The notes: generated by a model from the letters alone, not told the origin. 32,000 bases of DNA from Geopsychrobacteraceae bacterium (GCA_963677215.1 OY781919.1:2411877-2443876); one strand, 5' to 3'. Shown: positions 1,886-17,678, counted from the first letter of the stretch. A program made the numbers and translations.

Positions 1886-3604
1886 TCAGTCGTTATCGGG
1901 TTGATGCGCAATGGCCATGAATTTATCCGGATCATCGCCGGTGTCACTGGTTAGTGCGGTAACGACAAGCAGGACGATGGCGGAAGCGATGACACCGAAG
2001 AGCCCTGGTCCGCCGCCGACAGGCAAGCCGACAATGGTGTAACCGGGACCTTTGGCGAAGAGCAGAATAATGAAGATCACAGAGACGACGAGTCCGGTGA
2101 GGATACTGGCCATGATCGCCTGTTTCGTGGCGCGTCTCCACCAGAGTGTTGCGCACATGGCCGGGAAGACGGCGCTTGCGGCGATACCGAAGGCCAGCAT
2201 GACGAGCCAGGCTATATTTTCACCCTTCAGAAAGACGGCCAGGCAGACGGCAATTGCGGACATGGCCAGGGTGGTGAGCTTGGCGATGCCGAGTTCCTGT
2301 TTCTCGGTGGCATTCCTGTTGATGTAGACCTTGTAGAGATCGTGACTGACCGAAGAGGCCACGGTGATCATGAGTCCGGCTGAGGTGGAGAGGATCGCCG
2401 CGACGGCGCCAGCGGCACCGACAGCCATCAGCCAGGTGCCACCGACACGGAAGCTCATTTCAAGAACGGCCATATTTTTGGCCAGGCCGACACCGAGTGT
2501 GCCCTGTGATATCCAGGTGACCAGTTTTGGATAGATACCGGGGAAGAGCAGGAAGCCGAGGATGATGGCTGCCAGGTAGAAGAGCCCGAGAGCGACGATA
2601 CAGAGGGCGACGCTCTTTTTGGCAGCTTTGGCACTTGGAACGGTGAAGAACATGATGAGGATATGCGGCAGACCGGCGGTTCCGAAGACCAGGGCGACAA
2701 CCGTGGAAATCATGGCCAGGGTGCTGGACGTCTTGACGCCGATGGTCATGGCACTCTTGGCATCAGGCATCATTTGGCGGGCAACCTCGATGGCCTGGTC
2801 CGGAGGCAGGTTCCTGATGGCTTCGACTACGGCCATGTCCTTGCCGGCCAGCAGCGGCGGCACGATCTCTTTGGCCATTTCAAAAATCTGCAGGAAGTTG
2901 CCGTGCCCCACTTTAAAAAAGGCCAGGGTGATCAGAACGACCATCGTACCCCAGAGAAACAGGGCCTGGACAACCTGATTGTACAGGGTGGCCTTCATGC
3001 CACCGAAAATGATGTAGATACACATCAGAATGCCGAGGCCGATGGTCACCCAAACGAAGTTCCAGTGCAGCAGAAGTTCGAAGAGCAGGCCGGCACCGAG
3101 CATCTGCGGAACCAGGTAGAAGGTTGAGATGATGACTGTACAAAGCATGACGCACAGCTTGATGCGATCATCGTTGAAACGACTGTTCAGGGCTCCGGCA
3201 ACGGTAAAGGAACCGATGTTGCGCAAGGGGCCTGCAATAAGCAGCAGAACGGCCATATAACCGCCGAAGAAGCCAATGGAGAGCCAGATGGAGTCGAGGC
3301 CGTAAACGCCGATATCGCCTGCGCAACCGAGGAAGCTGGCAGCGGAAAGATAGCTGCCGGTCATGGCGATACCGACCTGAACCCAGGGTACGCCCTTGCC
3401 GGCAACATAGAAGTCACTGGTGGATTTCATGGTGCGGCTTGTCCACCAGGTAATGACGATACTGACAAGGACGAAGAACAGAATAAAGCCAACGACGATG
3501 GGGATGTTCAAAGTCGCCTCTTCTTGTCCAGGGGCTGCAAAGGCTTGCAGCGGAGAGCTCAGGGCAACGATTAGAAAGGCAAATTGTCTAAGAGCTTTTG
3601 GCAT
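1886..3604 (-). CDS. Sodium:solute symporter family permease, cation/acetate symporter (ActP)-like, 572 aa
   Basis: Multi-TM protein with the SSF signature region VPWVQVGIAMTGSYLSAASFLGCAGD..LLLIAGPLRNIGSFTVAGAL, which resembles ActP. I prefer the start at MPKALRQ (3604) over the track start at 3739. GGAGG lies 8 nt upstream, and the ATG overlaps the upstream gene's TAA as TAATG. Confidence 0.9.
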   Translation of the reverse strand: MPKALRQFAFLIVALSSPLQAFAAPGQEEATLNIPIVVGFILFFVLVSIVITWWTSRTMKSTSDFYVAGKGVPWVQVGIAMTGSYLSAASFLGCAGDIGVYGLDSIWLSIGFFGGYMAVLLLIAGPLRNIGSFTVAGALNSRFNDDRIKLCVMLCTVIISTFYLVPQMLGAGLLFELLLHWNFVWVTIGLGILMCIYIIFGGMKATLYNQVVQALFLWGTMVVLITLAFFKVGHGNFLQIFEMAKEIVPPLLAGKDMAVVEAIRNLPPDQAIEVARQMMPDAKSAMTIGVKTSSTLAMISTVVALVFGTAGLPHILIMFFTVPSAKAAKKSVALCIVALGLFYLAAIILGFLLFPGIYPKLVTWISQGTLGVGLAKNMAVLEMSFRVGGTWLMAVGAAGAVAAILSTSAGLMITVASSVSHDLYKVYINRNATEKQELGIAKLTTLAMSAIAVCLAVFLKGENIAWLVMLAFGIAASAVFPAMCATLWWRRATKQAIMASILTGLVVSVIFIILLFAKGPGYTIVGLPVGGGPGLFGVIASAIVLLVVTALTSDTGDDPDKFMAIAHQPDND

Positions 3605-3837
3605 TATTTTGACCTCCAGAACCAAATGATCATGATGATCCATGAGACGGGAAAAACGAGCAAGGAAAGCAGTACTCCAAGTGGCAGCCCGAGTACGGGT
3701 AGGTAGGCAATATCCTTGAACGTCGGCGTCTGGATACATGCCGAAACCAGGTAGAAAATAAAAAAGATGAAAAACAAACTGAAATTGAATAACGCCTTTT
3801 TCTTTAATGCATTATTGGATGCTGAACCAGGTGTCAT
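3604..3837 (-). CDS. Small 2-TM membrane protein, putative symporter small subunit (DUF4212/DUF485-like), 77 aa
   Basis: Position immediately upstream of the SSF permease with a 1-nt TAATG overlap. Two hydrophobic spans (LFNFSLFFIFFIFYLV; LGLPLGVLLSLLVFPVSWIIMIIWF). Start at MTPGS has GGAGG 5 nt upstream. Family assignment rests on context and shape only. Confidence 0.6.
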   Translation of the reverse strand: MTPGSASNNALKKKALFNFSLFFIFFIFYLVSACIQTPTFKDIAYLPVLGLPLGVLLSLLVFPVSWIIMIIWFWRSK

Positions 3838-4124
3838 AATTCCTCCGTTAGTAATAATTGTTTTCCAACTTAATGAATTATCTAGTTCCAACAGGAAGAG
3901 GCCTTAATACTTTACCGGAAAATTTAAAGTTTACAGGGGAAATGTTGATCTAGGTTTAAGAATTGTAAAGATAATCCGGAGGTTTGAGGCTTATTAACTA
4001 CTCAATGGTAAAAAAGTAGATTAGTGGTAATGGGGATTTGATGCAGATTTTGGATGTGCCACACCGAGATACGTTCTGTAATAACGCCCTCGTGACCTTG
4101 TTGTACGGAAATGTGTTTATGCAG

Positions 4125-4155
4125 AAATGGCCTCTCATGTGGTGAGAGGCCATTT
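4125..4155 (-). terminator. Strong hairpin about 85 nt downstream of the 410-aa gene; candidate terminator/insulator
   Basis: Perfect 13-bp inverted repeat aaatggcctctca (4125-4137) / tgagaggccattt (4143-4155) with a 5-nt loop. The T-rich tail is better on the + strand (tttgttgt), but only the - strand has a gene ending nearby. Confidence 0.5.
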
Positions 4156-4239
4156 GTTGTAGTGTATTTACCCTCGTTAAGTACGGTGGTAACGTCTTTA
4201 TATTGTTTTCTTGTGCGGTATGGGTATCTGTGTGCTCAT

Positions 4240-5472
4240 CTACGTCTTAAAGTTAATATCAAAGGGGTATCCTGGATTAGAAATAATATTTTTCAGGGTT
4301 TTGAGGCTGGTTTCAAAGCTATTGTCATTGTTGAAAATTGTATATTCGGTCGGGCACTGTCTGGAAAAATGTTCAAACATCATCTGATCATATAACCGAT
4401 GCCCGGCGGCCGTAATTTCCTGCTTTCGGCCTTGGATTGTTTCATAGCTGGCAATGCAATGGATTGTCGGTGTTCTTTGGCCCAGAAAGTTTGAAACCGG
4501 ATAGAATTTTGACCAGCGTGGCTTGTCTGTCTGGCGGTGCAGACATAAAAAATCAGCCAGGCTGCGGTCATAAATCATAATCTTTTTACGGTTTGAAAGT
4601 TTTTTCAGTGTGAGCCCCAGGCAGGCACGCAGATAGATCAGTCCGGAAAACCTTTCATCAAACAGATCCCGGTTGGGGAAGATCGGATGTAACAGAAGTA
4701 ACGATATTTTGTAGAGCATGGATAGGCGGTAGAGGCGTTTTCCGCGAAAAGATTTGGCAGGTGGGGAGGTTCTCTTGGCCAATGCCATTACCAGGGAGGT
4801 TTTCCCGACCCCGTCACAGCCCATGATACACAGCATGTTTCGACCACCCTGCAATCGCTTTCGGCAGTTATTTCTCAAGGGAGTTTGCTTCGGAGGCAGG
4901 GCTGCTAAAATCAATGTCAATGTTTTCTGCAGATCCTGCTTGTTCACCTGCCCATTTTCAACCGTCCGTTGCAGAGCTTCCAGGACCAGAGTTTCGCTGC
5001 ACCTGCCCAGATAATCTTCCAGTCTCTGGTGGATGTAATTCAAGGACAGGTCTTTATTCTTTAGCGCTAGATGGTGCAGGTAAATACTGGCTTCAATATC
5101 AACCTTAATGCGGCAGATAGAGAGATCATCGTTGTTTTCGGCAGCTGCTTGCAATGCCTCATAGGTCAGGGGAACTTTTGTCCCGAACAGTTGAGGAAGA
5201 ACATACCACAGATCGAGCCTCAGGCTCTTCAGCCCGTCCCGTGAATATAAAGTCAGCATTTTTTTGCCAAATTTTCGGGCTCCGATGTGGGCGTGACAAT
5301 AACCTTTTTTGACCCAGGTGTAGGCCTCAGCAGTTAGCGCATTTATCGATTCTTCACTGGCCAGGAAATCAATATCGCCACGGTTGATGTCAGCAGCGGA
5401 AATAAGGTCTCCGCGTAGTTGAATCAACCGCCAGGGGCCTGACAGAATGTTGCTGATACATTTTTCTATCAT
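4240..5472 (-). CDS. Orphan hypothetical protein: N-terminal nucleotidyltransferase-fold-like region fused to a C-terminal P-loop (thymidylate-kinase-like) NTPase/kinase domain, 410 aa
   Basis: Long ORF in an AT-rich segment. The N-terminus LRGDLISAADINRGDIDFLASEE..LRLDLWYV fits the G[SD]..D-h-D-h plus a later acidic strand pattern of NTase folds. The C-terminal half has Walker A MGCDGVGKTSLVMALAKR and a later IMIYDRSLADF (DR-type motif of dNMP/dN kinase-like folds). Confidence 0.75.
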   Translation of the reverse strand: MIEKCISNILSGPWRLIQLRGDLISAADINRGDIDFLASEESINALTAEAYTWVKKGYCHAHIGARKFGKKMLTLYSRDGLKSLRLDLWYVLPQLFGTKVPLTYEALQAAAENNDDLSICRIKVDIEASIYLHHLALKNKDLSLNYIHQRLEDYLGRCSETLVLEALQRTVENGQVNKQDLQKTLTLILAALPPKQTPLRNNCRKRLQGGRNMLCIMGCDGVGKTSLVMALAKRTSPPAKSFRGKRLYRLSMLYKISLLLLHPIFPNRDLFDERFSGLIYLRACLGLTLKKLSNRKKIMIYDRSLADFLCLHRQTDKPRWSKFYPVSNFLGQRTPTIHCIASYETIQGRKQEITAAGHRLYDQMMFEHFSRQCPTEYTIFNNDNSFETSLKTLKNIISNPGYPFDINFKT

Positions 5473-5550
5473 ACGGATAACCTGTCCATTTTATCAATGT
5501 TGCACAAATGTATAATGACCAACAGAAGCATTCCGTTGGTGCAGGACGAG

Positions 5551-5589
5551 ATAAAACAATAGCACCCTGTCGCTAAACAGAGTGCTATT
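5551..5589 (-). terminator. Rho-independent terminator of ettA
   Basis: 13-bp stem with one mismatch: aatagcaccctgt (5558-5570) / acagagtgctatt (5577-5589), 6-nt loop. On the - strand it is followed by GTTTTATCT. It lies about 85 nt after the ettA stop. Confidence 0.7.
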
Positions 5590-5673
5590 ACCAATCCTCA
5601 ATTCGTCATATTGCACAGTCCATGATTTTTGAAAGTTCGAATATCGCGCAATCAACTTGGGTGTCGTGACCGA

Positions 5674-7350
5674 TCACTGACGGGTCAACGACCGGTACCT
5701 GATCCGGTGCGGCTGATCGGCGTCACGGCCCAGGCGGCGTTTGCGGTCTTCTTCGTATTCGGAGTAGTTGCCTTCGAACCAGACAACCTGGGAATCCCCT
5801 TCAAAGGCCAGCATGTGGGTAGCGATGCGGTCGAGGAACCAGCGGTCGTGGCTGATGACCACGGCGCAGCCGCCGTAGTTTTCCAGACCTTCTTCAAGAG
5901 CGCGCAGGGTGTTGACGTCGAGATCGTTGGTCGGTTCGTCAAGCAGCAGGACGTTGGCTTCTTCGCGCAGCATCTTGGCCAGGTGGACGCGGTTACGCTC
6001 GCCACCGGAGAGGACGCCGACCTTCTTCTGTTGATCGGAGCCGGAGAAGTTGAAGCGGGCCACATAGGCGCGCGAGTTGAGCGATTTGCCACCCATGACG
6101 ATGGTGTCCTGACCACCGCAGACCTCTTCCCAGATGGTCTTGTTGCTGTCGAGTTCACGCCCCTGATCGACGTAGCCTAGCTTGACCGTTTCGCCAACCT
6201 TGAAGCTGCCGGCATCCGGCTGTTCCTGGCCGGTGATCATCTTGAACAGGGTCGACTTACCGGCGCCGTTGGGGCCGATGACGCCGACGATCCCGCCAGG
6301 AGGCAGGTTGAAGGTCAGGTCGTCGATCAGCAGCCGCTCACCGAAGCCTTTGCTGATCTCCTTGGCCTCAACAACGATGTTACCCAGACGTGGTCCCGGC
6401 GGAATGAACAGCTCGAGGGTCTGCTCCTTGGCCAGGCCTTCGTTGCCGAGCAGCTTCTCATAGGAGTTTATGCGGGCCTGGGATTTGGCGTGACGCCCTT
6501 TAGGCGACATGCGAATCCACTCGAGCTCACGCTGCAGGGTCTGCTGACGTTTGCTCTCGGCTTTTTCTTCCTTGCGCAGACGTTCCTGCTTCTGTTCCAG
6601 CCAGCTGGAGTAGTTGCCCTTCCATGGAATTCCGTGGCCGCGGTCAAGTTCAAGAATCCAGCCGGCGACGTTGTCAAGGAAGTAACGGTCGTGGGTGACC
6701 GCGATGACGGTGCCTTGGTAGCGCTGCAGGTGCTGCTCCAGCCAGGCGACGGTTTCGGCGTCCAGGTGGTTGGTGGGCTCATCCAAAAGCAGGATATCCG
6801 GTTTGTTCAGAAGCAAACGGCAGAGGGCGACGCGGCGTTTTTCACCACCGGAGAGGTTCTTGACCGGGGTCTCAGGCGGCGGGCAGCGCAGTGCTTCTTC
6901 TGCCAGTTCCAGGCGGGAGTCGAGCTCCCAGGCGTCGGCGGCGTCCAGTTTGTCCTGCACTACGGCCTGGCGGGCGAGCAGCTTGTCCATGTCGCAGTCT
7001 GGGTCGGCAAAAGCGTTGTTGATCTCCTCGAATTCGGCGAGCAGATCGACGACCTCCTGAACCCCTTCCTTTACAACTTCACGGACGGTCTTGCTGTCGT
7101 CGAGCTGTGGTTCCTGCTCCAGGTAGCCGACGCTGTAACCCTCGGAGAGTACGGCTTCTCCCTGAAATTCCTTGTCGACACCGGCCATGATTTTCAGCAG
7201 GGTCGACTTACCGGAACCGTTGAGACCTAAGACGCCGATCTTGGCACCGTAGAAGTAGGAGAGGGAGATGTCCTTGATGATCGGCTGTTTGTTGTAGCTC
7301 TTGCTGACCTTCATCATGGAGTAGATGACTTTTTTTGTGTCTTCGCTCAT
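5674..7350 (-). CDS. ettA: ABC-F ATPase, energy-dependent translational throttle protein EttA, 558 aa
   Basis: Two ABC cassettes ([38 protein letters not shown]; [38 protein letters not shown]) and no TM domain. Size and the N-terminus [23 protein letters not shown] are typical of EttA. Confidence 0.93.
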
Positions 7351-7437: not shown

Positions 7438-8586
7438 TCACTTTGGCTGACTGAGCTGTTCCCGGGCGTTCTCTTCCATCTGTTCTATGGCAATGAGAAA
7501 CGATTCGGTCAGTTGCGGGTGAAGCAGTTGCCCGCTGCTCTCGGTCATGATCTGCTTGATCTGGGCAAAGGTCAGCGGCTCCCTGTAGGTCCGTCTGGTA
7601 CGCAGCGCGTCATAAACGTCGGAGATGGTCGTCATGTAACTGCAGGTATTGAGTTGCCAATGGTCCGGAGTCTGGGGATAGCCTTTGCCGTTGTAGCCGA
7701 TATGGTGTTCGTAGGCGTTGACCACGGCCAGCTTCGGCGCGCCCGGGCAGCGCAACAGATATTCGGCGCCAAGTTGCGGGTGACGTTGCATCTGGGCCCA
7801 CTCTTGAGGATCCAGCTTGGTTTGCTTGTTGAGAATGTCCGGTGAAATGAACATCTTACCGACATCGTGGAGCATCGCTGCGATGCCGATCTGATTGAGG
7901 ATCTGGCCTTCAAAGCCGAGCAGCCGGGCCTGCGCCAGATTGAGCAGGCAGATGTTGGTTGAGTGGATGTAGGCATATTCATCCATGGAGCGCAGCGGTG
8001 CCAGGGCCAGCAGGGCCGAGCTGTGGGTGCTGAAGGCTGAGACAAAATCGTTGACCAGCTCAGAGATCCCGCCGATGTCGACATGTTTGCTGCGGCCGGC
8101 GGAAGCCTGAACCTCGTAAAACCGGTCTTCACCGTGCAGGCGGATTTCTGCCGCTGTTTCGGCCTGGGGAGAGGGGGGCTTCTGTCTGCTGCGCACGGCA
8201 ACACGGCCAAAACGGATGTGTTCCGTTTTTCTCGGTTCTACTTTGCGGCTGTGCTTGCTCAGGGTTGTCGCCAGTCTGATCATCTCTTCACTAGAGACCC
8301 CGGAGCTGATTTCCAGAAAGCTGATCTGCTGGGCTGTCAGGGTTTCAATCAGCCGGTCTGTCATCATGTTGCGCGGCACCGGCTGGTCATTGAAGATCAG
8401 CTCGTTGTTGACTATCTTGAAAGTGACCATACTGTGATCATTCATCAGCAGGCGCATTTCTTCGCGAGCCTGCTGGCAGAGGTGATGGACCTGAGGGTGC
8501 TCGCTGTCGTAGAGGGAGATATTGGCCGCCGCAGTTGTGATCTGGCGGATAAAGGCGGCCAGGTATTTCTGTTCCTTGAACGTCAT
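7438..8586 (-). CDS. HD-GYP-type metal-dependent phosphohydrolase with an uncharacterised N-terminal domain (cassette A, small subunit), 382 aa
   Basis: Motifs DEYAYIHSTN, HDVGKMF, HPQLGAEYL, HHIGYNGKGYPQ and SDVYDALRTRRTYRE appear in HD-GYP order. The ATG overlaps the upstream gene's TGA as ATGA at 8583-8586. Confidence 0.88.
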   Translation of the reverse strand: MTFKEQKYLAAFIRQITTAAANISLYDSEHPQVHHLCQQAREEMRLLMNDHSMVTFKIVNNELIFNDQPVPRNMMTDRLIETLTAQQISFLEISSGVSSEEMIRLATTLSKHSRKVEPRKTEHIRFGRVAVRSRQKPPSPQAETAAEIRLHGEDRFYEVQASAGRSKHVDIGGISELVNDFVSAFSTHSSALLALAPLRSMDEYAYIHSTNICLLNLAQARLLGFEGQILNQIGIAAMLHDVGKMFISPDILNKQTKLDPQEWAQMQRHPQLGAEYLLRCPGAPKLAVVNAYEHHIGYNGKGYPQTPDHWQLNTCSYMTTISDVYDALRTRRTYREPLTFAQIKQIMTESSGQLLHPQLTESFLIAIEQMEENAREQLSQPK

Positions 8587-10715
8587 TTTTGCCCCCGATC
8601 TGTCAGGCGCTGCAGCTGCTTTTCGACCAGTTCCCTTTCGGTCTTGTCGCGACCGCTCTGCAGGGAATGCAGAAGCGGTAGCACGCTGCGTCTGGGATAG
8701 CCACCCAGGGAACGGATGATTTCCAACTGAAAATCTTTTTCCCGGCGGCGGCGGAGCAGTTTCTTCTGCAGCAGTCTGGCGAGGACCGGGATGGTCTGTG
8801 GTTTGCCGATCATGCTTAGGGTCTCAAGGGTTTTTCTGCGGATCTGCAGATCCGGATCGCGATTGTGGTCGATCTGCAGCAGGAGATGCAGTTGGGCCAG
8901 AACCTTGCCGTCATGACTCTGGTCGGCGATTTCAACGGCTGCGGAGATCGATTCCCGGTTTCCACCCGAGAGGTCTTTGAGTAATTGCCGGTTGGCCATC
9001 ATCGGGTCGAAGCGGAAGATGATGCGCAGTGCTTCCTGGCGGACCTTGGGGTGCTCATGTGTTGCGAGGGGGCGGATTTCCCTGATCGGAATGGTTTCCT
9101 TGTCGAGCTTCGAGAGGATCAGCAGTACGTTGCGGACCAGATACCAGCGCTGATCCTTCAAGGTCTGGGTCAGTAGCTGAGCTGCTTTTTTGCCGAGCTC
9201 CTCCAGCAGGCGGACCCAGATCCTGCGTTTGGAGAGTTGCTTTTCTTTCCCGAGGCGGTTGATCAGCAGTTCGGCATAAGGCTCGCCAACCTCGAAGATG
9301 TAGGCACTGATCTCTCCCCCCTTTTCCGCGCCCCAGATTTCGACATGGTCAAGTACGTCGGACATGAAGAGCTCACTGGTCTGCAGGGCCAGGACGGTTT
9401 CATCCAGAAAGCGGGCATTGGCTTTGCCGCTGTAGAGGTATTCGGCCCAGTTGACAAAAATTTCGCGCAGCGTCGTGAAGTCCCCTGTATCCAGGTAGAA
9501 TCTGGCCATTTCGGTCAGGTTATGTTGCAGGCTTTTTTCCGCTTCGGAATCGACACCGTTACTGAGCATGTTGAAGATGATATTGACGCACTGATTTTCA
9601 ATCGCCAGGGTTTTCAGGCTGTTTCTCAGCTTTAGTGCGACATGTTCCGGAAGGGAACTTGTCATCTGCTGGTTGAGGATGTTTTTCAGGGTGGTCTGGT
9701 ACACATCGGGCACAAACTGGCTGTGGCTGTCTTCGAGCAGGAGAATGTCGATCTGCGCATTCAGAACATCGGTGTCGATTTTTTCAATGTCCAGTGCAGC
9801 CGGAGTCGTCAATATATCGTCGTTGTCGGCAAATTCCTCGAGCAGGTCAATAAGTCTGGCCGAGACTGTCTCCTTGTTTTGGGATTGACGATGAATGGCT
9901 GTTTTAAGCAGATGCTGCGGAAACGAATTGAGGAACTGCGAGGTCAGGTCGGGGTGTCCGGACAGGGCATTGAGGATGCTGTCGGTGAATCTTTCCTGGA
10001 TCTGCGGGTGCAGTTGCTCAACGACTTCAGCGACCTGAAGGGGAACCTCTGCTTCTTCCCTCGGTTCAGACGCAAACCTGGAAATCAGATTGCTGATCAG
10101 CGGATCCAGGTTGTCCGTGTGGCATTTTCCCTGGTTGATGGCTCTGGCGATCTCGGCACTTTCGATGGTATCGGAAAGACTATGTTTCTCATTGAGAAGT
10201 TCTGTGATGAAATCGTTCCAGGGGGAATCGCTGGAATCGCCGTCATCGGCCTGAAAGGCTCCAAAGTCGACCAGAACGATCTGAATCTGGTGGATCCCCT
10301 GTTGCTGAAGCTGTTTTGGCAGTTCCTGATTGACTCCTGTTTCGTTGCCTTCTGTGCTGAGGAGCTGATAGAAGCCGAGTACCTCTTTGGCGGAGAGGTT
10401 CCGGAAAAAGCGGATCGAGGCGATTCGGTATGAAGACAGGAATTGGGCGAAGTCGCGGATGGCTCGATTGCCGGCCTCCTGCCACTGCCCTTCAAAAAGA
10501 ATATTGTCGGGTGCGATCCCGAGGTGGATGTCCTGCCCGGACTGACAGGTTTGGGCCAAGGCGCGCAGAACCGCATCACAACTCTGGGTTAGTTGTGGGT
10601 GCCCTGGCGGATACAATTTCAGCTGACGCTGAAAAATATTGAGGTCCTGGATGAATCCGGAAAGCTGGTGGCGATTGTTTGCCGTGGCAGTTTTGGATTC
10701 TCCTGACATTAACAC
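8583..10715 (-). CDS. Large uncharacterised protein with C-terminal HEAT-like repeats (cassette A, large subunit), 710 aa
   Basis: Uninterrupted 710-codon ORF. The GTG start has GGAGG 7 nt upstream. The C-terminus has HEAT/PBS-like repeats (HPKVRQEALRIIFRFDP; DPDLQIRRKTLETLSMIGKPQTIPVLARLL). It is paralogous to the 715-aa ORF upstream. Confidence 0.85.
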   Translation of the reverse strand: MLMSGESKTATANNRHQLSGFIQDLNIFQRQLKLYPPGHPQLTQSCDAVLRALAQTCQSGQDIHLGIAPDNILFEGQWQEAGNRAIRDFAQFLSSYRIASIRFFRNLSAKEVLGFYQLLSTEGNETGVNQELPKQLQQQGIHQIQIVLVDFGAFQADDGDSSDSPWNDFITELLNEKHSLSDTIESAEIARAINQGKCHTDNLDPLISNLISRFASEPREEAEVPLQVAEVVEQLHPQIQERFTDSILNALSGHPDLTSQFLNSFPQHLLKTAIHRQSQNKETVSARLIDLLEEFADNDDILTTPAALDIEKIDTDVLNAQIDILLLEDSHSQFVPDVYQTTLKNILNQQMTSSLPEHVALKLRNSLKTLAIENQCVNIIFNMLSNGVDSEAEKSLQHNLTEMARFYLDTGDFTTLREIFVNWAEYLYSGKANARFLDETVLALQTSELFMSDVLDHVEIWGAEKGGEISAYIFEVGEPYAELLINRLGKEKQLSKRRIWVRLLEELGKKAAQLLTQTLKDQRWYLVRNVLLILSKLDKETIPIREIRPLATHEHPKVRQEALRIIFRFDPMMANRQLLKDLSGGNRESISAAVEIADQSHDGKVLAQLHLLLQIDHNRDPDLQIRRKTLETLSMIGKPQTIPVLARLLQKKLLRRRREKDFQLEIIRSLGGYPRRSVLPLLHSLQSGRDKTERELVEKQLQRLTDRGQK

Positions 10716-10814
10716 CCTGGTTCCTCCCCCCGTATACTGTTTTATTCAATAAATCCTAATTTTATGAGAATAGACCCTTTTGCAGTTTTTTAGAAGAGGT
10801 TCATTGATGTGTTG

Positions 10815-11951
10815 TTAAGTTTTTGCCATGTCCCGATCGAGCTCGCTGATCGTTCCCAGAAAATTGTAGGTCAACTGCGGATGCAGTTTGTTGCCCGCAA
10901 GGTTGAGCATGATCGAAATGATCTGGTTCAGGTCCAGGGACTCTTCGTAGGCACGATGGGTGCGCATGGCGTCATAGGTATCTGATATGGCCGTCAGGTA
11001 GGAACTCAAGTGCTGCAGCCATGGCCTTGAGGTCTGCGGGTAGCCGGCATTATCAAACCGCATATGATGTTCATAGGCGGTAATCACGGCAAGTCTGGGT
11101 ATCCCCGGGCAGCCAGTCAGATATTCGGCGCCGAGACGCGGGTGTTGCTGCATGATCTCCCATTCGGCCCCAGTCAGGGCTTCGTTTTTGGTCAGGATCT
11201 CCGGCGGAATGAACATTTTTCCAACATCGTGCAGCATTGCCGCGATACCGATGTCGTTGAGCAGTTGTCCTTCTATGCCGAGCATTCTGGCCTGGGCGAG
11301 GTTGAGCATGCAGATGTTGGTTGAGTGGGTGTAAGTATACTCGTCCATGCTGCGCAACGGCGCAATCGCCATCAGGACATCGTTCTGTGAATCGAAGGCA
11401 TTGATGAAACCGGAAACGATCTCGGAGACACCAGCGATATTCAGGGGTTTGTTCTTTCTGATCGTCTGGTAGAGGTCCATGATGCTGTCGGCTTCAGACT
11501 CGGCAATCCAGGTCAGTGGGGATACTGCCGGGCCTGATTCTTCGCCCTTGAGACGGACCTCAATCTTGCCATAGCGGATGTGCTCGGTATTGGTTGGTTG
11601 GTGCGTAGAGTTCTGGATTTTGCTGAGCAGTAGGGCAAGGCCAAGCAGTTCGTCGGCATAGATGCCATCCAGGATCTGCAGGTGTGAGACTCCGCTGCGA
11701 TTCAGGGCGCTGACAAGACGTTTGACGGCATTGCTCTGCTCGACGGGCTGATTGTCAAAAATCAGCCGGCTATCGATAACTTTCAGGACGATTTCATTAT
11801 GTTTTTTGAGCAGCTCATGGGCGATCTGCAATGCTTGGTTATTGAGGCGCAGCACCTGCCGATGGTTGGCGTGATAGAGGGATGCATTGGCGGATGCCGT
11901 GGTCAACAGGCGTAAAAAGGTCTGAAGTTGTTCCTGTCTTGAGCCGCTCAT
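10815..11951 (-). CDS. HD-GYP-type metal-dependent phosphohydrolase with an uncharacterised N-terminal domain (cassette B, small subunit), 378 aa
   Basis: Motifs DEYTYTHSTN, HDVGKMF, HPRLGAEYL, HHMRFDNAGYPQ and SDTYDAMRTHRAYEE. ATGA overlap with the upstream gene at 11948-11951. Clear paralog of 7438-8586. Confidence 0.88.
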   Translation of the reverse strand: MSGSRQEQLQTFLRLLTTASANASLYHANHRQVLRLNNQALQIAHELLKKHNEIVLKVIDSRLIFDNQPVEQSNAVKRLVSALNRSGVSHLQILDGIYADELLGLALLLSKIQNSTHQPTNTEHIRYGKIEVRLKGEESGPAVSPLTWIAESEADSIMDLYQTIRKNKPLNIAGVSEIVSGFINAFDSQNDVLMAIAPLRSMDEYTYTHSTNICMLNLAQARMLGIEGQLLNDIGIAAMLHDVGKMFIPPEILTKNEALTGAEWEIMQQHPRLGAEYLTGCPGIPRLAVITAYEHHMRFDNAGYPQTSRPWLQHLSSYLTAISDTYDAMRTHRAYEESLDLNQIISIMLNLAGNKLHPQLTYNFLGTISELDRDMAKT

Positions 11952-14095
11952 AGGTTTGTTCTCCGTTTTTCCTGCACCTCTTTGGCGGCGTTTTTGTAAG
12001 GCCCTTTGGCCATTTCATCAAGCAGTTTGTCGGCTCCTGAGCCGGGAAATGTCAGCAGCGCATTGAGGATCTGCTGCTGCAGGGACTTCAGGTGGCGGGA
12101 CTTGAAAAGTTTCGGTCCGCTCAGCAACAGCCGGCGGAAGATGGTCAGCGATTCCGGCCGTCCACAGCGGGAGAGGGCTGCGATCACGGCTTCGACGTAA
12201 TGCAACTGCTCGGCGGTTTCGATACTCATCTCCAGCTGCCTGTGCAGCTGACTGAAGACGCCCGAATCCTGACTCAAGTGCACCAGCCCAAGAGCCGCGT
12301 TTCGCGCACTGAGATCGGCGTTCTGCAGTTCCGTGATCAGCAACCGGTTGGCTGTCGCCGGATTGCAGCGGAACAGGTTGCGGATGACCTCGGCCCTGAC
12401 TCTCTGATCGGGATGGTCTGCGTACTTCAGGTTGGCCTTGATGCTCGCCGGGGTCTGCTCTTCGCCTAAGACAATCAGCAGATTGCGTAGCAGATACCAG
12501 GGTTCAGGCCTGAGGGCCTGGAGGACCTTCTGCTGAACGTCCCCGTCAATCTTTCTGAGCAGGCCCATCCAGAGCATGCGTTCCTTCTGTTCTGTCGCGT
12601 TGGAAAGACGGTCGATGATCGGGTCGCAGTATGGTTCGCCGACGAACAGAATATAGTTGCTGATCTGCTCCCATTTCTGCTCTTCCCAGAGCTCAAAACT
12701 GTCGAGAATGTCGTTCATGAAACTGGACTGGGTGTGACCGGCAATCAACTGCTCATCGAGAATGCTGGTCTGGGCATGGTTGCTGTACAGGTAGTTGTAC
12801 CAGTTCCTGAAGACCGCCCGCAGGCTGATGAAATCACCGGTATCGGCAAAGAAACGGGAGAGCTCCATGAGGCTCTGCTGGATGTGAGATTCCTGCTCCT
12901 TGTCCAGCGGAGAGAGCAGCAGCTCGAAAATGACTGCCGCGAAATGGTGTTCGATCGACTGCTCCTCCATGTCCTGCTTCAGTTGCAGCTTTTCCGCTTC
13001 TGACATGTGGCCATGGAGGTCGCCGGCAAGCATGGTGTTGAGGGCCTGCTGGTAGCTGTCGGGAAGAAAGAGATCCTCCTGTTCTTCGCTGAACAGGGTC
13101 TCCAGCCGGGCTTTGACGACGCTTGATTCCATGCGTGGTGAGTTGAGGCGGATCTTGTTTTTCTGGTCAGTATCCGAGGCGGCCAGAACCTCGACCAGCC
13201 CTAGCAGACGCTGGGAGATCTGCAGCTGTGAACCCTGATTCGAGGCAAAGCTGTCGTGCAGTAGCCGGGGGGAAATCTTTTTCAGTGCGTTCTCTGCCTG
13301 GTCCTGATGACGGTCGATCACCTTGAGGGTGCTTTCCAGGAATGCCTGCCGGGCCCCGGGCTCAAGCTTGAGCAACAGCTCATTGAAGACCTGATCCGCT
13401 TCCGATTCCGGAGTGGTGATCAGCCGTTTTTCAACATAGTTGGACAGGGATTGCCGGCACTGCTCACGATCATCGCGGGTCCCTTTGAACCTGCTGTTGA
13501 TGATTTCGGCAATGACTGACAGGTTGCTGGAAATTTCCGAGAATCCCAGGTCGAGGATTCCCTGCTGCATGCCATAGATGAAATTTTCCCAGAGCAGTTG
13601 CTCTTCTTTCGCGTCGCCTCTTCCGACCTGAAACGCATTGTAGTCGATGGTGATGATCTGGATATGACGAATCTGGTGCTGTTCGAGCAGTTGGGCAAAA
13701 CCGCCGGAATTTTCAATGCTGATCCGGTCCGAACAGAGCAGCTTGCAGAAACAGAGCAGCTCTGCTTCTGTCAGCCCTTTTGCGAAATTGATGGTTGCAA
13801 TGCCAAGCTCGGCAAAGAAAGCGGCGAAGTCCCTGTTGGCGGGGTCGTTTTTGTCAAGCCAGGTCTGCTCAAAGAGGATTCCGGACGGGGATATGCCCAG
13901 GGTGAGTAGAGGAAAGTTCTCCATAATCAGCGCGAGTAGCGACATGGCTTTTTCGATGCTGGCCGTGATCTGGGGGTGCTCATCCGGATAGAGGGCCAGG
14001 TTGCGCTGTGCTGTTTTCAGTTCCTGCAGAAAAACAGTCAGCAGAGGACGATCCTGTCTCCTGGTGTCAGTGCTTGATATGGCGTTCCGGTTCAA
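11948..14095 (-). CDS. Large uncharacterised protein with C-terminal HEAT-like repeats (cassette B, large subunit), 715 aa
   Basis: Uninterrupted ORF with a TTG start and AGAGG 6 nt upstream. HEAT-like repeats are present (DQRVRAEVIRNLFRCNPATANRLL; ADLSARNAALGLVHL). It shares sequence islands with the 710-aa paralog (DTGDF, VGEPY, WYLLRN). Confidence 0.85.
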   Translation of the reverse strand: MNRNAISSTDTRRQDRPLLTVFLQELKTAQRNLALYPDEHPQITASIEKAMSLLALIMENFPLLTLGISPSGILFEQTWLDKNDPANRDFAAFFAELGIATINFAKGLTEAELLCFCKLLCSDRISIENSGGFAQLLEQHQIRHIQIITIDYNAFQVGRGDAKEEQLLWENFIYGMQQGILDLGFSEISSNLSVIAEIINSRFKGTRDDREQCRQSLSNYVEKRLITTPESEADQVFNELLLKLEPGARQAFLESTLKVIDRHQDQAENALKKISPRLLHDSFASNQGSQLQISQRLLGLVEVLAASDTDQKNKIRLNSPRMESSVVKARLETLFSEEQEDLFLPDSYQQALNTMLAGDLHGHMSEAEKLQLKQDMEEQSIEHHFAAVIFELLLSPLDKEQESHIQQSLMELSRFFADTGDFISLRAVFRNWYNYLYSNHAQTSILDEQLIAGHTQSSFMNDILDSFELWEEQKWEQISNYILFVGEPYCDPIIDRLSNATEQKERMLWMGLLRKIDGDVQQKVLQALRPEPWYLLRNLLIVLGEEQTPASIKANLKYADHPDQRVRAEVIRNLFRCNPATANRLLITELQNADLSARNAALGLVHLSQDSGVFSQLHRQLEMSIETAEQLHYVEAVIAALSRCGRPESLTIFRRLLLSGPKLFKSRHLKSLQQQILNALLTFPGSGADKLLDEMAKGPYKNAAKEVQEKRRTNL

Positions 14096-14209: not shown

Positions 14210-15223
14210 GTGCTAGATTTCCGCCGATATGGACACTCATTATTTAATGAATGGCTTATGAGCCCGCAGACGCATTTTGATGTTGGTGATGCGGACCTGG
14301 CCCAGCAGCTTTTTGGCCGGCAGAATAAGCATCTAAAACAGATAGAAAAGAAACTCGGCATTCGGGTCGGCAGCCAGGGGACGGTTATCCACCTCTCCGG
14401 CGATGAGGCTCAGGTCGGGGTTGCCAGGCGCCTGCTTGAAGAGCTGTGCACCCTGCTTCGCGAGGGGATGCCGCTCTACCCGGCTGATGTCGATTACGCC
14501 ATTCGCATCCTCTCTGCGGATTCTTCCGCGTCTCTGAAAGATATCTTCTTTGATACTGTCTTCGTTTCGGCCCGCAACAAGATGATTGCGCCGAAAAGCA
14601 TCGCCCAGAAGAGTTATGTTGACAATATTCGTGAAAACCATGTTGTCTTCGGTGTCGGCCCGGCCGGAACCGGCAAGACTTATCTGGCCATGGCGATGGG
14701 CGTGGCCTCCCTGCTGCGTAAGGAAGTCAGCCGGATCATGCTTGTCCGACCTGCTGTCGAAGCCGGGGAAAAGCTCGGTTTTTTGCCTGGCGATCTGGCC
14801 GAGAAGGTCAATCCGTACCTGCGTCCACTCTACGATGCCCTTTATGACATGCTCGATTTTGACAAGGCCAGGGAGTTGGTTGAAACCGGTATTGTCGAAG
14901 TAGCCCCTCTGGCCTTCATGCGCGGCCGGACCCTGAATGACGCTTTTGTCATTCTTGACGAAGCGCAAAATACCACCGCAGAACAGATGAAGATGTTTCT
15001 CACCCGCCTCGGTTTTGGTAGCCGGGCCGTCATTACCGGGGATGTGACCCAGGTCGATCTGCCCCGGGGGCAGCAATCGGGGCTGCTGCATGCGATGGAA
15101 GTGCTGGTCGGTGTGCGCGGGATTGAGTTTACCTATTTCAGCGATCGGGATGTCGTTCGTCATCCGATTGTGCAAGCGATTGTTCAGGCCTACCAGAGAG
15201 CTGAAAAGCACGAAGACTCCTGA
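14210..15223 (+). CDS. phoH: PhoH-family ATPase (PhoH/YbeZ)
   Basis: Walker A GPAGTGKTYLAMAMG and Walker B FVILDEAQN. Motifs ITGDVTQVDLP and VVRHPIVQAIV are typical of PhoH/YbeZ. The gene sits upstream of ybeY as in many bacteria. Start is ambiguous: GTG at 14210 or ATG at 14258. Confidence 0.9.
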   Translation: MLDFRRYGHSLFNEWLMSPQTHFDVGDADLAQQLFGRQNKHLKQIEKKLGIRVGSQGTVIHLSGDEAQVGVARRLLEELCTLLREGMPLYPADVDYAIRILSADSSASLKDIFFDTVFVSARNKMIAPKSIAQKSYVDNIRENHVVFGVGPAGTGKTYLAMAMGVASLLRKEVSRIMLVRPAVEAGEKLGFLPGDLAEKVNPYLRPLYDALYDMLDFDKARELVETGIVEVAPLAFMRGRTLNDAFVILDEAQNTTAEQMKMFLTRLGFGSRAVITGDVTQVDLPRGQQSGLLHAMEVLVGVRGIEFTYFSDRDVVRHPIVQAIVQAYQRAEKHEDS

Positions 15224-15266
15224 TGCGAGCTCTGGTGGAGGGCGGCCTTCATCTTTTTGAGGACAT

Positions 15267-17678
15267 ATGACGAAAGACGAGAAACAGAAAGCCCTGCAGA
15301 GGCGAAGCGCCTTTTTCAGCGATGGTGTTCAGGGTTTGCGGAACCGCAAGGGGGCCAACCTTGGAGGCTGGCTGCTGCTGATCGTTGCCGTGCTGTTGAC
15401 CTTTATCATCATACCGAAGGGTGGGCTGATTCCGGATTACTATGCTCCCGGCGATGTCGCTTCCCGCAATATCAAATCGCCCCGCGATCTGCTGGTCGAA
15501 GACCTGCCTTTGACAGAAGCCAAGCAGCTTGAGGCTGCCAACGCGGTTGCTCTGGTCTATCAGTTTGATGTGGCTGGTGGGAGTCAGGCTGTTGAACGGC
15601 TGGACCGGGGGCTGCGCGGCCTGTTGAATTATCAGCTCAGCAGCAGGGCCCTAAATGGACAGGATGTTCTTCCCCAGCTGGAGACCGACCTTGGCATCCC
15701 GCTGACCAGTGAAGAGTTTTTGCCTTTGCTGAAGCTGCCCCTGACAATCGAGCTGATCGACCAGATCAGGTTAGCTTTAGAGACTGTTTTTCACCGGCCG
15801 ATCGTTGCCAATCAGCAGATCTATCAGAGCGACCAGGACAAGGGACTGGTGGTTCTCGATTGGGCGAGTGGAGAGCCGCTTGAGTTGAAGATTGGTGATC
15901 GGGTGATTGGTCTCACCCAGGCTCTGAGCGAAGTTCAGACACAATTGGGGCAGCTCATGGGGCTTGCGGAGGGGCAGCGCCAGGTTCTGGCGCGCCTCGT
16001 TCAGCAACTGCTGCGGCCCAGCCTGATCTACGATCAGGATGAAACCGAAGCACGACGCCAGTTGGCCCGCGAGCAGGTCGCGCCTGTTCTGTTTCAGATC
16101 AAGAAGGGGGAGATGATCGTCCGCGAAGGGGAACGTATCTCCGCCGATCAGATCCTCAAGCTCAAGGCTATTCGTAATTCCGGACTCGACAACCGTAACC
16201 TGCAGACGGCCGCGGGGCTGTTGATCTGCATCCTGCTGCTGATCTATGTCGGCTATCATTTTGCCAACGGCAACATCAGTAAGTTTCGTCCAGATCAGCG
16301 TGACCTGCTGTTTCTGTCGAGCGTTTTTCTGGTCTATTTCGTTCTGGTCAAGGTCTCGATCCTGATTGTTTCCGCTATCGGCAACAGTTTTACCTACATC
16401 GATTCAACAGCTTACCTCTATGCGGTCCCTTTCGCGCTGGGTGCCATGCTGGTGCGGATCGTTCTCAATTCCGAGACCGCGTTCATCTTTTCCGTCGGCT
16501 GTGCCGTGCTGGTCGGTATTATCATGGGCAATAGCCTGCTGATGGCTCTGTTTGTCCTGATCGGCAGTCTGGTCGGGGCGCACGGAGTCCGGCACTGTCA
16601 GCAGAGGACCAGGCTTTATCGGGCCGGGCTGTGGATCGGCCTGACCAACGCCGCTTTGCTGCTGGGCATGCATTTTCTGTCGGGACGGGTTTTCGAGCTG
16701 CAACTGCTGTGGAAGCTTGGTCTCGGGTTTTTCGGTGGTATCGCCAGTGCCGTTTTTGTCAACGGCACGGTCCCGCTGGTCGAATCCTTCTTCAAGTACA
16801 CGACCGATATCAAGCTGCTTGAACTGGCCAACATGAACTCACCGGTATTGCGCCAGCTGATGATCGAGGCTCCCGGCACCTATCATCATTCGATCCTGGT
16901 CGGCAATTTGGCCGAGGCCGGGGCCGAAGCGATACGGGCCAATCCGTTGCTGGCTCGGGTCGCAGCCTATTATCATGATATCGGCAAGATCAAGAAACCG
17001 CTCTATTTTATCGAGAACTCTGGCGGTCAGCGAAACAAGCATGACAAACTGGCGCCGTCGATGAGTGCCCTGATCCTCACCTCACACGTCAAGGACGGAG
17101 TGGAACTGGCCCGCGAGCACAAGCTGGGATCGGAGCTGATGGAAATCATCCAGCAGCATCACGGCACCTCGCTGATCAAATTTTTTTATGACCGCGCCAA
17201 GAACCTGTCCGACCCGGAGGTCCATCAGGTTGATGAGCGTGATTACCGCTATCACGGGCCGAAACCTCAGACTCGGGAAGCGGCGCTGATTATGCTGGCC
17301 GATGCGATCGAGGCCGCCAGCCGGACACTGACCGATCCGACCCCGGCACGGATTCAGGGGATGGTGCAGAAGCTGATCAACAATATCTTTATTGATGGCC
17401 AGCTCGATGAGTGTGATCTTACCCTGAAGGACCTGAATCTGATCGCCAGGAGCTTCAATCGTGTGCTGTCGAGTTCATTCCATCATCGCGTCGATTACCC
17501 CGAACCCGTACATATCGTCAAGGACAAGGCCGAGCCTGAGGACAAGGTGGCCGTCAAAGAGAAAGTGAAACAGAAGAATGCGAATTCAGATCGACAACCG
17601 GCAGAACAAACAACGGATTCTGAAGCGTCCCCTGCGCAAGATAGCCCAGAAGATCTTAGACGTCTCGGGATATCCTAA
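15267..17678 (+). CDS. pgpH: 7TM-receptor HD/HDIG membrane phosphohydrolase (PgpH/YqfF family, the cyclic-di-AMP phosphodiesterase family), 803 aa
   Basis: N-terminal TM segment plus extracytoplasmic region, then a multi-TM block. The C-terminal HD domain shows YHHSILVGNLAE..YYHDIGKIKKP..QQHHGT..LADAIEAASR. It occupies the conserved phoH-pgpH-ybeY position. Confidence 0.88.
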   Translation: MTKDEKQKALQRRSAFFSDGVQGLRNRKGANLGGWLLLIVAVLLTFIIIPKGGLIPDYYAPGDVASRNIKSPRDLLVEDLPLTEAKQLEAANAVALVYQFDVAGGSQAVERLDRGLRGLLNYQLSSRALNGQDVLPQLETDLGIPLTSEEFLPLLKLPLTIELIDQIRLALETVFHRPIVANQQIYQSDQDKGLVVLDWASGEPLELKIGDRVIGLTQALSEVQTQLGQLMGLAEGQRQVLARLVQQLLRPSLIYDQDETEARRQLAREQVAPVLFQIKKGEMIVREGERISADQILKLKAIRNSGLDNRNLQTAAGLLICILLLIYVGYHFANGNISKFRPDQRDLLFLSSVFLVYFVLVKVSILIVSAIGNSFTYIDSTAYLYAVPFALGAMLVRIVLNSETAFIFSVGCAVLVGIIMGNSLLMALFVLIGSLVGAHGVRHCQQRTRLYRAGLWIGLTNAALLLGMHFLSGRVFELQLLWKLGLGFFGGIASAVFVNGTVPLVESFFKYTTDIKLLELANMNSPVLRQLMIEAPGTYHHSILVGNLAEAGAEAIRANPLLARVAAYYHDIGKIKKPLYFIENSGGQRNKHDKLAPSMSALILTSHVKDGVELAREHKLGSELMEIIQQHHGTSLIKFFYDRAKNLSDPEVHQVDERDYRYHGPKPQTREAALIMLADAIEAASRTLTDPTPARIQGMVQKLINNIFIDGQLDECDLTLKDLNLIARSFNRVLSSSFHHRVDYPEPVHIVKDKAEPEDKVAVKEKVKQKNANSDRQPAEQTTDSEASPAQDSPEDLRRLGIS

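Follow-up and report, generated by a model that had tools for sequence, protein, structure and literature searches.

Background

Phosphodiesterases acting on cyclic dimeric GMP (c-di-GMP) fall into two classes, and less is understood about the HD-GYP enzymes than about the other. A census of their domain architectures reports REC, GAF, DUF3391, DUF3369 and membrane sensor domains, never mentions HEAT repeats, and leaves many N-terminal regions undefined and the signals that they receive unknown (10.1101/2021.11.05.467447). Here we describe a tandem pair of two-gene cassettes, each coding for a large HEAT-repeat protein and a small HD-GYP protein, in a 32,000-nucleotide (nt) stretch of DNA from a Geopsychrobacteraceae bacterium (GCA_963677215.1 OY781919.1:2411877-2443876; henceforth the window, to whose full length all positions of the cassettes and their neighbours refer). 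The two-gene unit is real and conserved, and it is apparently undescribed: neither the pairing nor the N-terminal module that its two proteins have in common appears in the above census (10.1101/2021.11.05.467447) or in a 2026 survey of HD-GYP proteins in Leptospira.

The closest known case in behaviour is the DUF3391-HD-GYP family (Bd1817, PA4108 and VC2497), whose members are likewise soluble proteins of similar size, with an uncharacterized N-terminal domain of ~120 residues, a helical linker and a C-terminal HD-GYP domain. A role in promoting dimerization has been suggested for DUF3391 (10.1101/2021.11.05.467447), and Bd1817 is also a structural match to the catalytic half of the small protein of our first cassette. 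However, DUF3391 is, by its published description, built from four strands with two long helices after them, whereas the module described here begins with helices, and no obligatory partner gene carrying a DUF3391 domain has been described for that family. That HD-GYP proteins can act within complexes that involve dedicated partners is known from the RpfG-type proteins; unlike the present case, those partners are GGDEF or PilZ proteins, the genes do not overlap, and no domain is common to enzyme and partner.

Organization of the cassettes

All four genes lie on the minus strand. The large and small proteins of cassette 1 are named L1 and S1, and those of cassette 2 L2 and S2, with the following features (lengths in amino acids, aa; N-module, the common N-terminal module):

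11948..14095, minus strand: L1, large protein of cassette 1, 715 aa, TTG start with AGAGG six bases upstream; domain order N-module, variable helical middle, HEAT solenoid
13724..14062, minus strand: N-module of L1, residues ~12-124, turn motif LYPDEHP (from sub-profile hmmsearch and hhalign)
11954..12625, minus strand: HEAT-repeat solenoid of L1, residues ~491-714 (from Pfam, sub-profiles and PDB profile matches to alphaRep/HEAT)
10815..11951, minus strand: S1, predicted HD-GYP phosphodiesterase of cassette 1, 378 aa, specificity motif RAYE
11550..11951, minus strand: N-module of S1, residues 1-134, turn motif LYHANH
10824..11444, minus strand: HD-GYP catalytic domain of S1, residues ~170-376
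8583..10715, minus strand: L2, large protein of cassette 2, 710 aa, GTG start at 10715
10347..10682, minus strand: N-module of L2, residues ~12-123, turn motif LYPPGHP
8592..9275, minus strand: HEAT region of L2, residues ~481-708, as delimited by the HEAT sub-profile
7438..8586, minus strand: S2, predicted HD-GYP phosphodiesterase of cassette 2, 382 aa, specificity motif RTYR (canonical)
8188..8586, minus strand: N-module of S2, residues 1-133, turn motif LYDSEHP
7444..8082, minus strand: HD-GYP catalytic domain of S2, residues ~169-381

A check of the open reading frames (ORFs) of the window recovered the genes as two minus-strand pairs exactly where the original prediction, made from the DNA alone, had placed them. 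At both large/small junctions the TGA stop of the large gene was read to overlap the ATG start of the small gene in the tetranucleotide ATGA, again as claimed. The database version of L2 is 708 aa long, with its start at the ATG at 10709.

An N-terminal module common to both partners

The strongest clue to the relation between the two partners, which the original prediction had overlooked, is that the large and small proteins both start with the same alpha/beta module of ~110 residues. Comparison of the two families with hhalign aligned residues 15-123 of the large protein with residues 5-112 of the small one (probability 98.1%, E = 1.1e-13); this was the single hit, with no homology detected between the middle and HEAT regions of the former and the HD-GYP domain of the latter. 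The similarity is marginal in pairwise BLASTP comparisons of large and small N-termini (E = 0.003 and 0.023), and the large- and small-type sub-profiles of the module match each other's type in every cassette. In AlphaFold models of L2 and S1 the elements come in the same order, namely two long helices, three short strands, a helix, a strand and a helix, after which a further strand follows directly in S1 and is preceded by an extra helix in L2. The block-mean predicted local distance difference test score (pLDDT) is ~80-90 over most of the module in these models.

One tyrosine, situated in the turn between the first two helices within the motif L-Y-P-x-x-H-P, is invariant among 47 aligned modules of both partner types. 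At the position of the histidine four residues further on, 13 cognate pairs have His in both partners, four have Asn in both and two are mixed. The four Asn/Asn pairs look like one subclade and hence give only a hint of coupling between the partners. In this subclade (loci L020, L021, L025 and L026) the motif is LYPxEN on the enzyme side and YLPNNP on that of the HEAT protein.

In Pfam searches DUF3391 (PF11871) was matched by none of the 47 modules at E <= 1, and no family was matched by more than one of them. Neither Pfam nor NCBIfam gave a REC, GAF or PAS match in the four proteins or the 47 modules, these being profile searches, which a distant fold could escape; as had been claimed, Pfam recognizes no receiver, PAS, GAF or transmembrane region in the four proteins. 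A profile search of the PDB with the module yielded nothing beyond 37 residues matched to a designed protein, a hit that we treated as noise. No other architecture was found in the module search, the matches being fragments of the large and small types, and the many short "module-only" proteins are probably frameshift fragments or truncations at contig ends. As far as can be judged by sequence, the module is new, with neither a Pfam model nor a credible solved relative.

Conservation of the gene pairing

Starting from the large protein, we found an HD_5/HD gene next downstream on the same strand in all nine full-length relatives located on contigs, even where identity to L2 is as low as 21-23%. 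Beyond the pair itself, the nine loci have unrelated surroundings, among them genes of amino-acid biosynthesis and lipid A and those for SecA and glutamine synthetase. One of the nine comes from a Nitrospirota-named cluster, and the set covers at least two phyla. At junctions between called large and small genes, the spacing varies between an overlap of 16 nt and a gap of 19 nt, and ATGA overlaps recur in many loci.

A metagenome scan seeded with the small protein yielded 80 loci, the six-frame ORFs of which were searched with per-domain sub-profiles. Each of the 16 HD-GYP genes in which the module was detected has a same-strand upstream gene with a module and/or HEAT signal, several of these upstream genes being cut by contig ends and that of L030 showing the module only. 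The comparison set comprised 41 module-less HD-GYP genes with at least 600 nt of upstream sequence, a single one of which (L043) had a large-type neighbour (Fisher p ~3e-13). As the L043 enzyme was found to carry a diverged module under a broader module profile (E = 7e-10), the final tally is 17/17 with the module versus 0/40 without it, for loci that span proteins down to ~25% identity and are not phylogenetically independent. Together with the nine of nine large genes followed by an HD-GYP gene, this neighbourhood check upholds the conserved pairing proposed earlier. In the module of the L043 enzyme (4200-5852 of that locus) the otherwise invariant tyrosine is also lost. Another locus, L093, which the module search picked up on a long contig, has its cassette split into five short ORFs (3253-6541), with neighbours such as IGPS split likewise; these splits look like frameshift errors of long-read assembly.

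Adjacency of this kind might reflect nothing but inherited synteny without a functional link, and the genes flanking the cassettes are also conserved within Geopsychrobacteraceae. However, the pair persists in distant lineages while its flanks change completely, the association with the module is all-or-none in the above Fisher test, and the partners have a domain in common; we accordingly attach next to no probability to mere synteny.

Duplication and co-divergence of the cassettes

L1 and L2 are diverged paralogs, as originally stated, but the statement that they have only islands in common understates their similarity, because they can be aligned from end to end (30% identity over 709 columns, E = 4e-104). 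S1 and S2 are 46% identical (E = 6e-125), and their catalytic halves are the more alike, in line with the original observation: identity reaches 62% in the HD-GYP domain, against 38% over the first 134 residues and 21% over the linker. The corresponding values for L1 and L2 are 38% in the N-module, 23% in the middle region and 33% in the solenoid.

When 15 large and 15 small proteins were each placed in a neighbour-joining tree, the two trees had matching clade structure and matching outgroup groupings, and the pairwise distances of the two sets are correlated with r = 0.93, a value reached in none of 5,000 Mantel permutations. The cassette-1 clade takes in the single cassette of L005, a locus with one pair only, of cassette-1 type; the cassette-2 clade is its sister. 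From the congruence of the large and small trees it follows that the cassette was duplicated once as a unit, which bears out the proposed duplication with the pairing kept intact; this single whole-cassette duplication predates the split of the sampled Geopsychrobacteraceae-like lineages. The equal divergence of the N-module in both partners, set against the better conserved catalytic domain, would fit co-evolving, mutually insulated interfaces.

The large HEAT-repeat protein

The predicted C-terminal HEAT-like repeats are the only Pfam signal in the large proteins, with HEAT_2 scoring 43.5 bits in L2 and 26 bits, just below the cut-off of 27.7, in L1; NCBIfam has nothing above cut-off for either. 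In the model of L2 (mean pLDDT 76) the N-module (~8-150) is followed by a helical middle that is poorly defined (~160-370) and then by an alpha-solenoid modelled with confidence (~380-710). Foldseek searches of the PDB with this model recovered nothing but HEAT/ARM solenoids of a generic kind (alphaRep, the A subunit of PP2A, CAND1 and importins), and the profile of the large family matched only alphaRep/HEAT sequences in the PDB, at positions 492-699 (E = 3e-22 to alphaRep). The scaffold (A) subunit of PP2A, one of the top structural matches, likewise combines a HEAT solenoid with a metallo-phosphoesterase; however, it is eukaryotic, resembles the large protein in sequence only by repeat type and has no N-module, so that it serves as an analogy only.

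The middle region is conserved among closer relatives only, and distant large partners, of 512-764 aa, retain the module and the HEAT repeats. An exhaustive profile search returned 1,554 cluster representatives (at the 50% identity level) with E <= 1e-30, a number that is an upper bound because it possibly includes strong HEAT-only matches; among the best 150 representatives (at least 437 bits) nearly all are ~700-760 aa long and mostly give one end-to-end match. This search overturned the impression of a tiny family left by a word-indexed search with L2 (29 proteins), which was an artefact of sensitivity. Where the source databases name the large relatives, they do so as "hypothetical protein" or "HEAT repeat domain-containing protein", and full-text literature searches for a link between HEAT repeats and HD-GYP proteins or c-di-GMP phosphodiesterases gave nothing relevant. 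Pfam, NCBIfam, PDB sequence and fold searches, source names and literature thus agree with the original prediction in placing the large protein outside any characterized family.

Catalytic site and predicted substrates of the small protein

The small proteins match HD_5/HD in Pfam, with HD_5 scores of 56 and 51.8 bits (cut-off 27.2), to which NCBIfam contributes nothing specific, and their fold, metal ligands and GYP motif likewise support their earlier assignment to the HD-GYP type. By sequence, the nearest solved structures are those of PmGH (4mcw, E = 1.5e-21), PA4781, V-cGAP3, DvhD and Bd1817, and the S1 model superposes on PA4781 (4r8z, TM to target 0.72), DvhD, PmGH and Bd1817, with 9rbz, 4mcw and 3tm8 as further PDB matches. 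We tabulated the key positions in 28 module-bearing HD-GYP proteins (S1, S2 and 26 others) relative to PmGH, the chain index of which equals the published numbering plus 6 according to our alignment. The equivalents of PmGH H189, H221, D222, H250, H276, H277 and D305 are invariant in all 28. The signature HHExh(D/N)GxGYP reads HHMRFDNAGYP in S1 and HHIGYNGKGYP in S2, and the GYP motif is kept across the 28 members, with Gly replaced by Asn in one. At the position of the third-metal ligand (PmGH E185) 26 of the 28 have Tyr and two have Leu, which does not fit a trinuclear site; the absence of this glutamate assigns them to the binuclear class, enzymes of which, according to the census, mainly yield the linear dinucleotide as product, with exceptions (10.1101/2021.11.05.467447). 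The best sequence and fold matches, PmGH (a GAF-HD-GYP protein; 4mcw/4mdz) and PA4781, share the conserved HD, H, HH, D and GYP residues, and PA4781 also lacks the third-metal glutamate; here, unlike in these enzymes, Tyr occupies that position, the Glu of HHE is replaced, the N-terminal domain is another one and there is a HEAT partner.

The two cassettes differ at the specificity position (PmGH R314/K317), where Glu is found in all five orthologs of cassette 1, and Lys or Arg in all four of cassette 2; in the wider family about a third have Gln (RxYQ). The Glu of cassette 1 probably arose secondarily, given that Lys, Arg or Gln predominates among the outgroup cassettes. The motif RxY[K/R] is held largely responsible for specificity towards c-di-GMP, and RxxQ/N shifts it toward cyclic GMP-AMP (cGAMP) (10.1101/600031, 10.1101/2021.11.05.467447). 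The cGAMP-selective GAP enzymes (PmxA, Bd2325 and Gmet_3476; RxxQ/RxxN) vary at this same position; cassette 1 departs from them in its undescribed Glu, and PmxA has a Cache-TM-HAMP architecture. The substrate, which the original prediction held to be unreadable from sequence, can therefore be read in part. S2 (RxYR) most likely hydrolyses c-di-GMP, and S1 (RxYE) may prefer another dinucleotide such as 3'3'-cGAMP: Glu, like Gln, is a hydrogen-bond acceptor, which makes a preference for an adenine-containing dinucleotide plausible.

We propose that the small protein is a catalytically competent binuclear HD-GYP phosphodiesterase of cyclic dinucleotides. It could instead act on another kind of substrate presented by the HEAT protein, for example a protein-bound or nucleic-acid phosphoester, or be a silent receptor. 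Such a role might explain the replacement of the Glu of HHE by Met, Ile or Leu in 27 of the 28 members and by Arg in one, which amounts to a family signature, as well as the degenerate KPG motif of the window proteins (KNE and KQT) and the RxYE of cassette 1; catalytically inactive HD-GYP proteins working through protein-protein contacts are, moreover, known. However, the binuclear ligands, the Tyr of GYP, the Lys of KPG and the Arg and Tyr of RxY are all conserved, and the closest solved relatives are active phosphodiesterases of c-di-GMP or cGAMP, on which grounds we consider this alternative distinctly improbable.

Genes for diguanylate cyclases (GGDEF) are located no more than 3-4 kb from the cassette in two unrelated loci (a REC-GGDEF gene at 10435-11364 of L090 and a GAF-GGDEF gene at 1-1181 of L092), which fits a role in cyclic-dinucleotide signaling, although two cases are too few for an association. 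Some small proteins have C-terminal extensions, of ~400 residues in L017 (389-2809, a maximal ORF of 807 aa) and of ~60 residues in Desulfuromonas sp. AOP6 (L008, 7589-8923). Cultured carriers of the small family include Malonomonas rubra DSM 5091 and Desulfuromusa kysingii.

A proposed mechanism

Taking these observations together, we lean, with some reserve, towards a model in which the large and small proteins form a complex in matched amounts, with their N-modules paired and the HEAT subunit in a regulatory or scaffolding role. The data show the gene structure, the paralogy, the common module, its strict co-occurrence with the partner gene, the co-divergence and the intact active-site residues; the complex itself, its interface, the direction of control and the substrates are what we infer. 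The two proteins would be co-translated from their overlapping genes, and their homologous N-modules would associate as a pseudo-homodimer that replaces, or adds to, the usual HD-GYP homodimer. The large protein would then be the non-catalytic partner, whose HEAT solenoid may gate or localize the phosphodiesterase or connect it to another partner or signal. After the duplication the copies would have diverged most in their N-modules and at the specificity residue.

Several points weigh against this model. The tight linkage of the two genes would by itself give congruent trees and matched divergence, and the four Asn/Asn pairs probably represent a single event. A module+HEAT protein from a Zixibacteria-named source (L009, 65-2614) has no HD-GYP gene downstream. 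On the enzymatic side, the Glu of HHE is replaced in all 28 members, RxYE is without experimental precedent, and an RxxS enzyme is reported still to hydrolyse c-di-GMP. L009, the only module-bearing large-type gene seen without an enzyme, is followed by a gene for a Tricorn-like protease, and the contig is cut just upstream of it.

The module in common could equally mean that both proteins sense one ligand independently. In that case the N-module would bind a ligand or receive a signal, the two proteins would respond in parallel without binding each other, the enzyme would lower a cyclic dinucleotide and the HEAT protein would scaffold separately, and their co-transcription would reflect membership of a single response. 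The conserved Tyr/His turn motif in both partners is in keeping with this idea, as is the general view of HD-GYP N-terminal domains as sensors (10.1101/2021.11.05.467447), and adjacency and co-divergence fit co-regulation as well as they fit binding. On the other hand, stop/start overlaps recurring across phyla suggest matched stoichiometry, as is typical of complexes, and the lack of any other module-bearing architecture in our searches would be unusual for a general sensor domain. We regard parallel sensing as unlikely, while taking it seriously as the chief rival of the complex. The complex that we favour can also be cast more strictly, with the N-module as a new heterodimerization domain, an obligate HD-GYP/HEAT heterodimer in which the HEAT subunit switches the enzyme on or off or tethers it to a target, and, for the two mutually insulated cassettes of Geopsychrobacteraceae, c-di-GMP as the substrate in cassette 2 versus an adenine-containing dinucleotide (such as 3'3'-cGAMP) in cassette 1; in this full form it is a tentative and rather unlikely proposition.

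Genomic context

The window is ordinary core chromosome, and the base composition of the cassettes is normal. They are flanked on one side by genes for a sodium:solute symporter and an ABC-F ATPase, and on the other by divergent genes for PhoH and a PgpH-like 7TM-HD protein (14210-17678, plus strand), which in the syntenic loci L002, L003 and L005 are followed by ybeY, corC and lnt. Farther along the window lie genes for a Na/Pi cotransporter, KdsB, CTP synthase, KdsA and RpoN. A scan of a genome collection with a single protein as query returned one close relative only (L001), a metagenome-assembled genome of Geopsychrobacteraceae, which at 87% identity is the nearest that was found.

Two-gene cassettes in varied contexts and tandem duplication are common in defence loci, and the pair might accordingly be a conflict module, for example an immune or anti-immune pair that degrades a nucleotide signal. 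PADLOC, however, matched neither protein save for a borderline match to the HD region of Cas10 (E = 0.003-0.008), the surroundings are those of core chromosome (ABC-F, PhoH, PgpH-like, KdsA/B, CTP synthase and RpoN), and position and orthology are stable across genera, besides the normal composition of the cassettes. With no support from PADLOC we rejected a role in defence, which we consider highly improbable.

Two further features belong to the intergenic regions:

10716..10814, minus strand: inter-cassette spacer, 99 bp, AT-rich, with a GGAGG ribosome-binding site ahead of L2
14136..14164, minus strand: promoter-like site upstream of L1, TTAACC, 17-nt spacer, TG-TATACT; a consensus match only

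The promoter-like site sits in the 114-bp divergent region common to L1 and phoH, and promoter-like sites in the region are no more numerous than in shuffled sequence. The spacer is strikingly AT-rich for this genome and contains no terminator-like site. No Rfam family was matched anywhere in the window, leader and spacer included, and the leader thus has no recognizable c-di-GMP or cGAMP riboswitch.

PgpH-like 7TMR-HD proteins are a family of c-di-AMP phosphodiesterases. Two kinds of genes for HD-superfamily hydrolases of nucleotide signals, those of the cassettes and the PgpH-like one, hence stand back to back in the window, with no evidence linking their functions. Between the symporter and the ABC-F gene, a 410-aa ORF (4240-5472, minus strand) without a Pfam match has a Walker-A-like motif, GCDGVGKTS. 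It lies within a low-GC stretch (3001-5000; 45-47% GC versus ~55% elsewhere), which may be a small foreign insertion.

Implications

At the level of comparative genomics, our results support the original interpretation of the locus and extend it by the common module and by the difference in the specificity residue. A new N-terminal domain among HD-GYP proteins is not in itself surprising. What is defined here is such a module together with a large unnamed family of module-bearing HEAT proteins and a near-absolute rule of their joint encoding with the enzyme by overlapping genes. The HEAT protein, which occurs in Desulfobacterota, Nitrospirota and probably Gemmatimonadota, is a concrete and widely distributed candidate for a subunit dedicated to regulating a cyclic-dinucleotide phosphodiesterase.

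The two diverged neighbouring cassettes with their different specificity residues constitute a natural experiment, both in the insulation of partners and in selectivity for c-di-GMP versus cGAMP. Both messengers are in use among relatives of Geobacter. If the reading as heterodimers acting on two messengers is true, a single four-gene locus would control two second-messenger pools.

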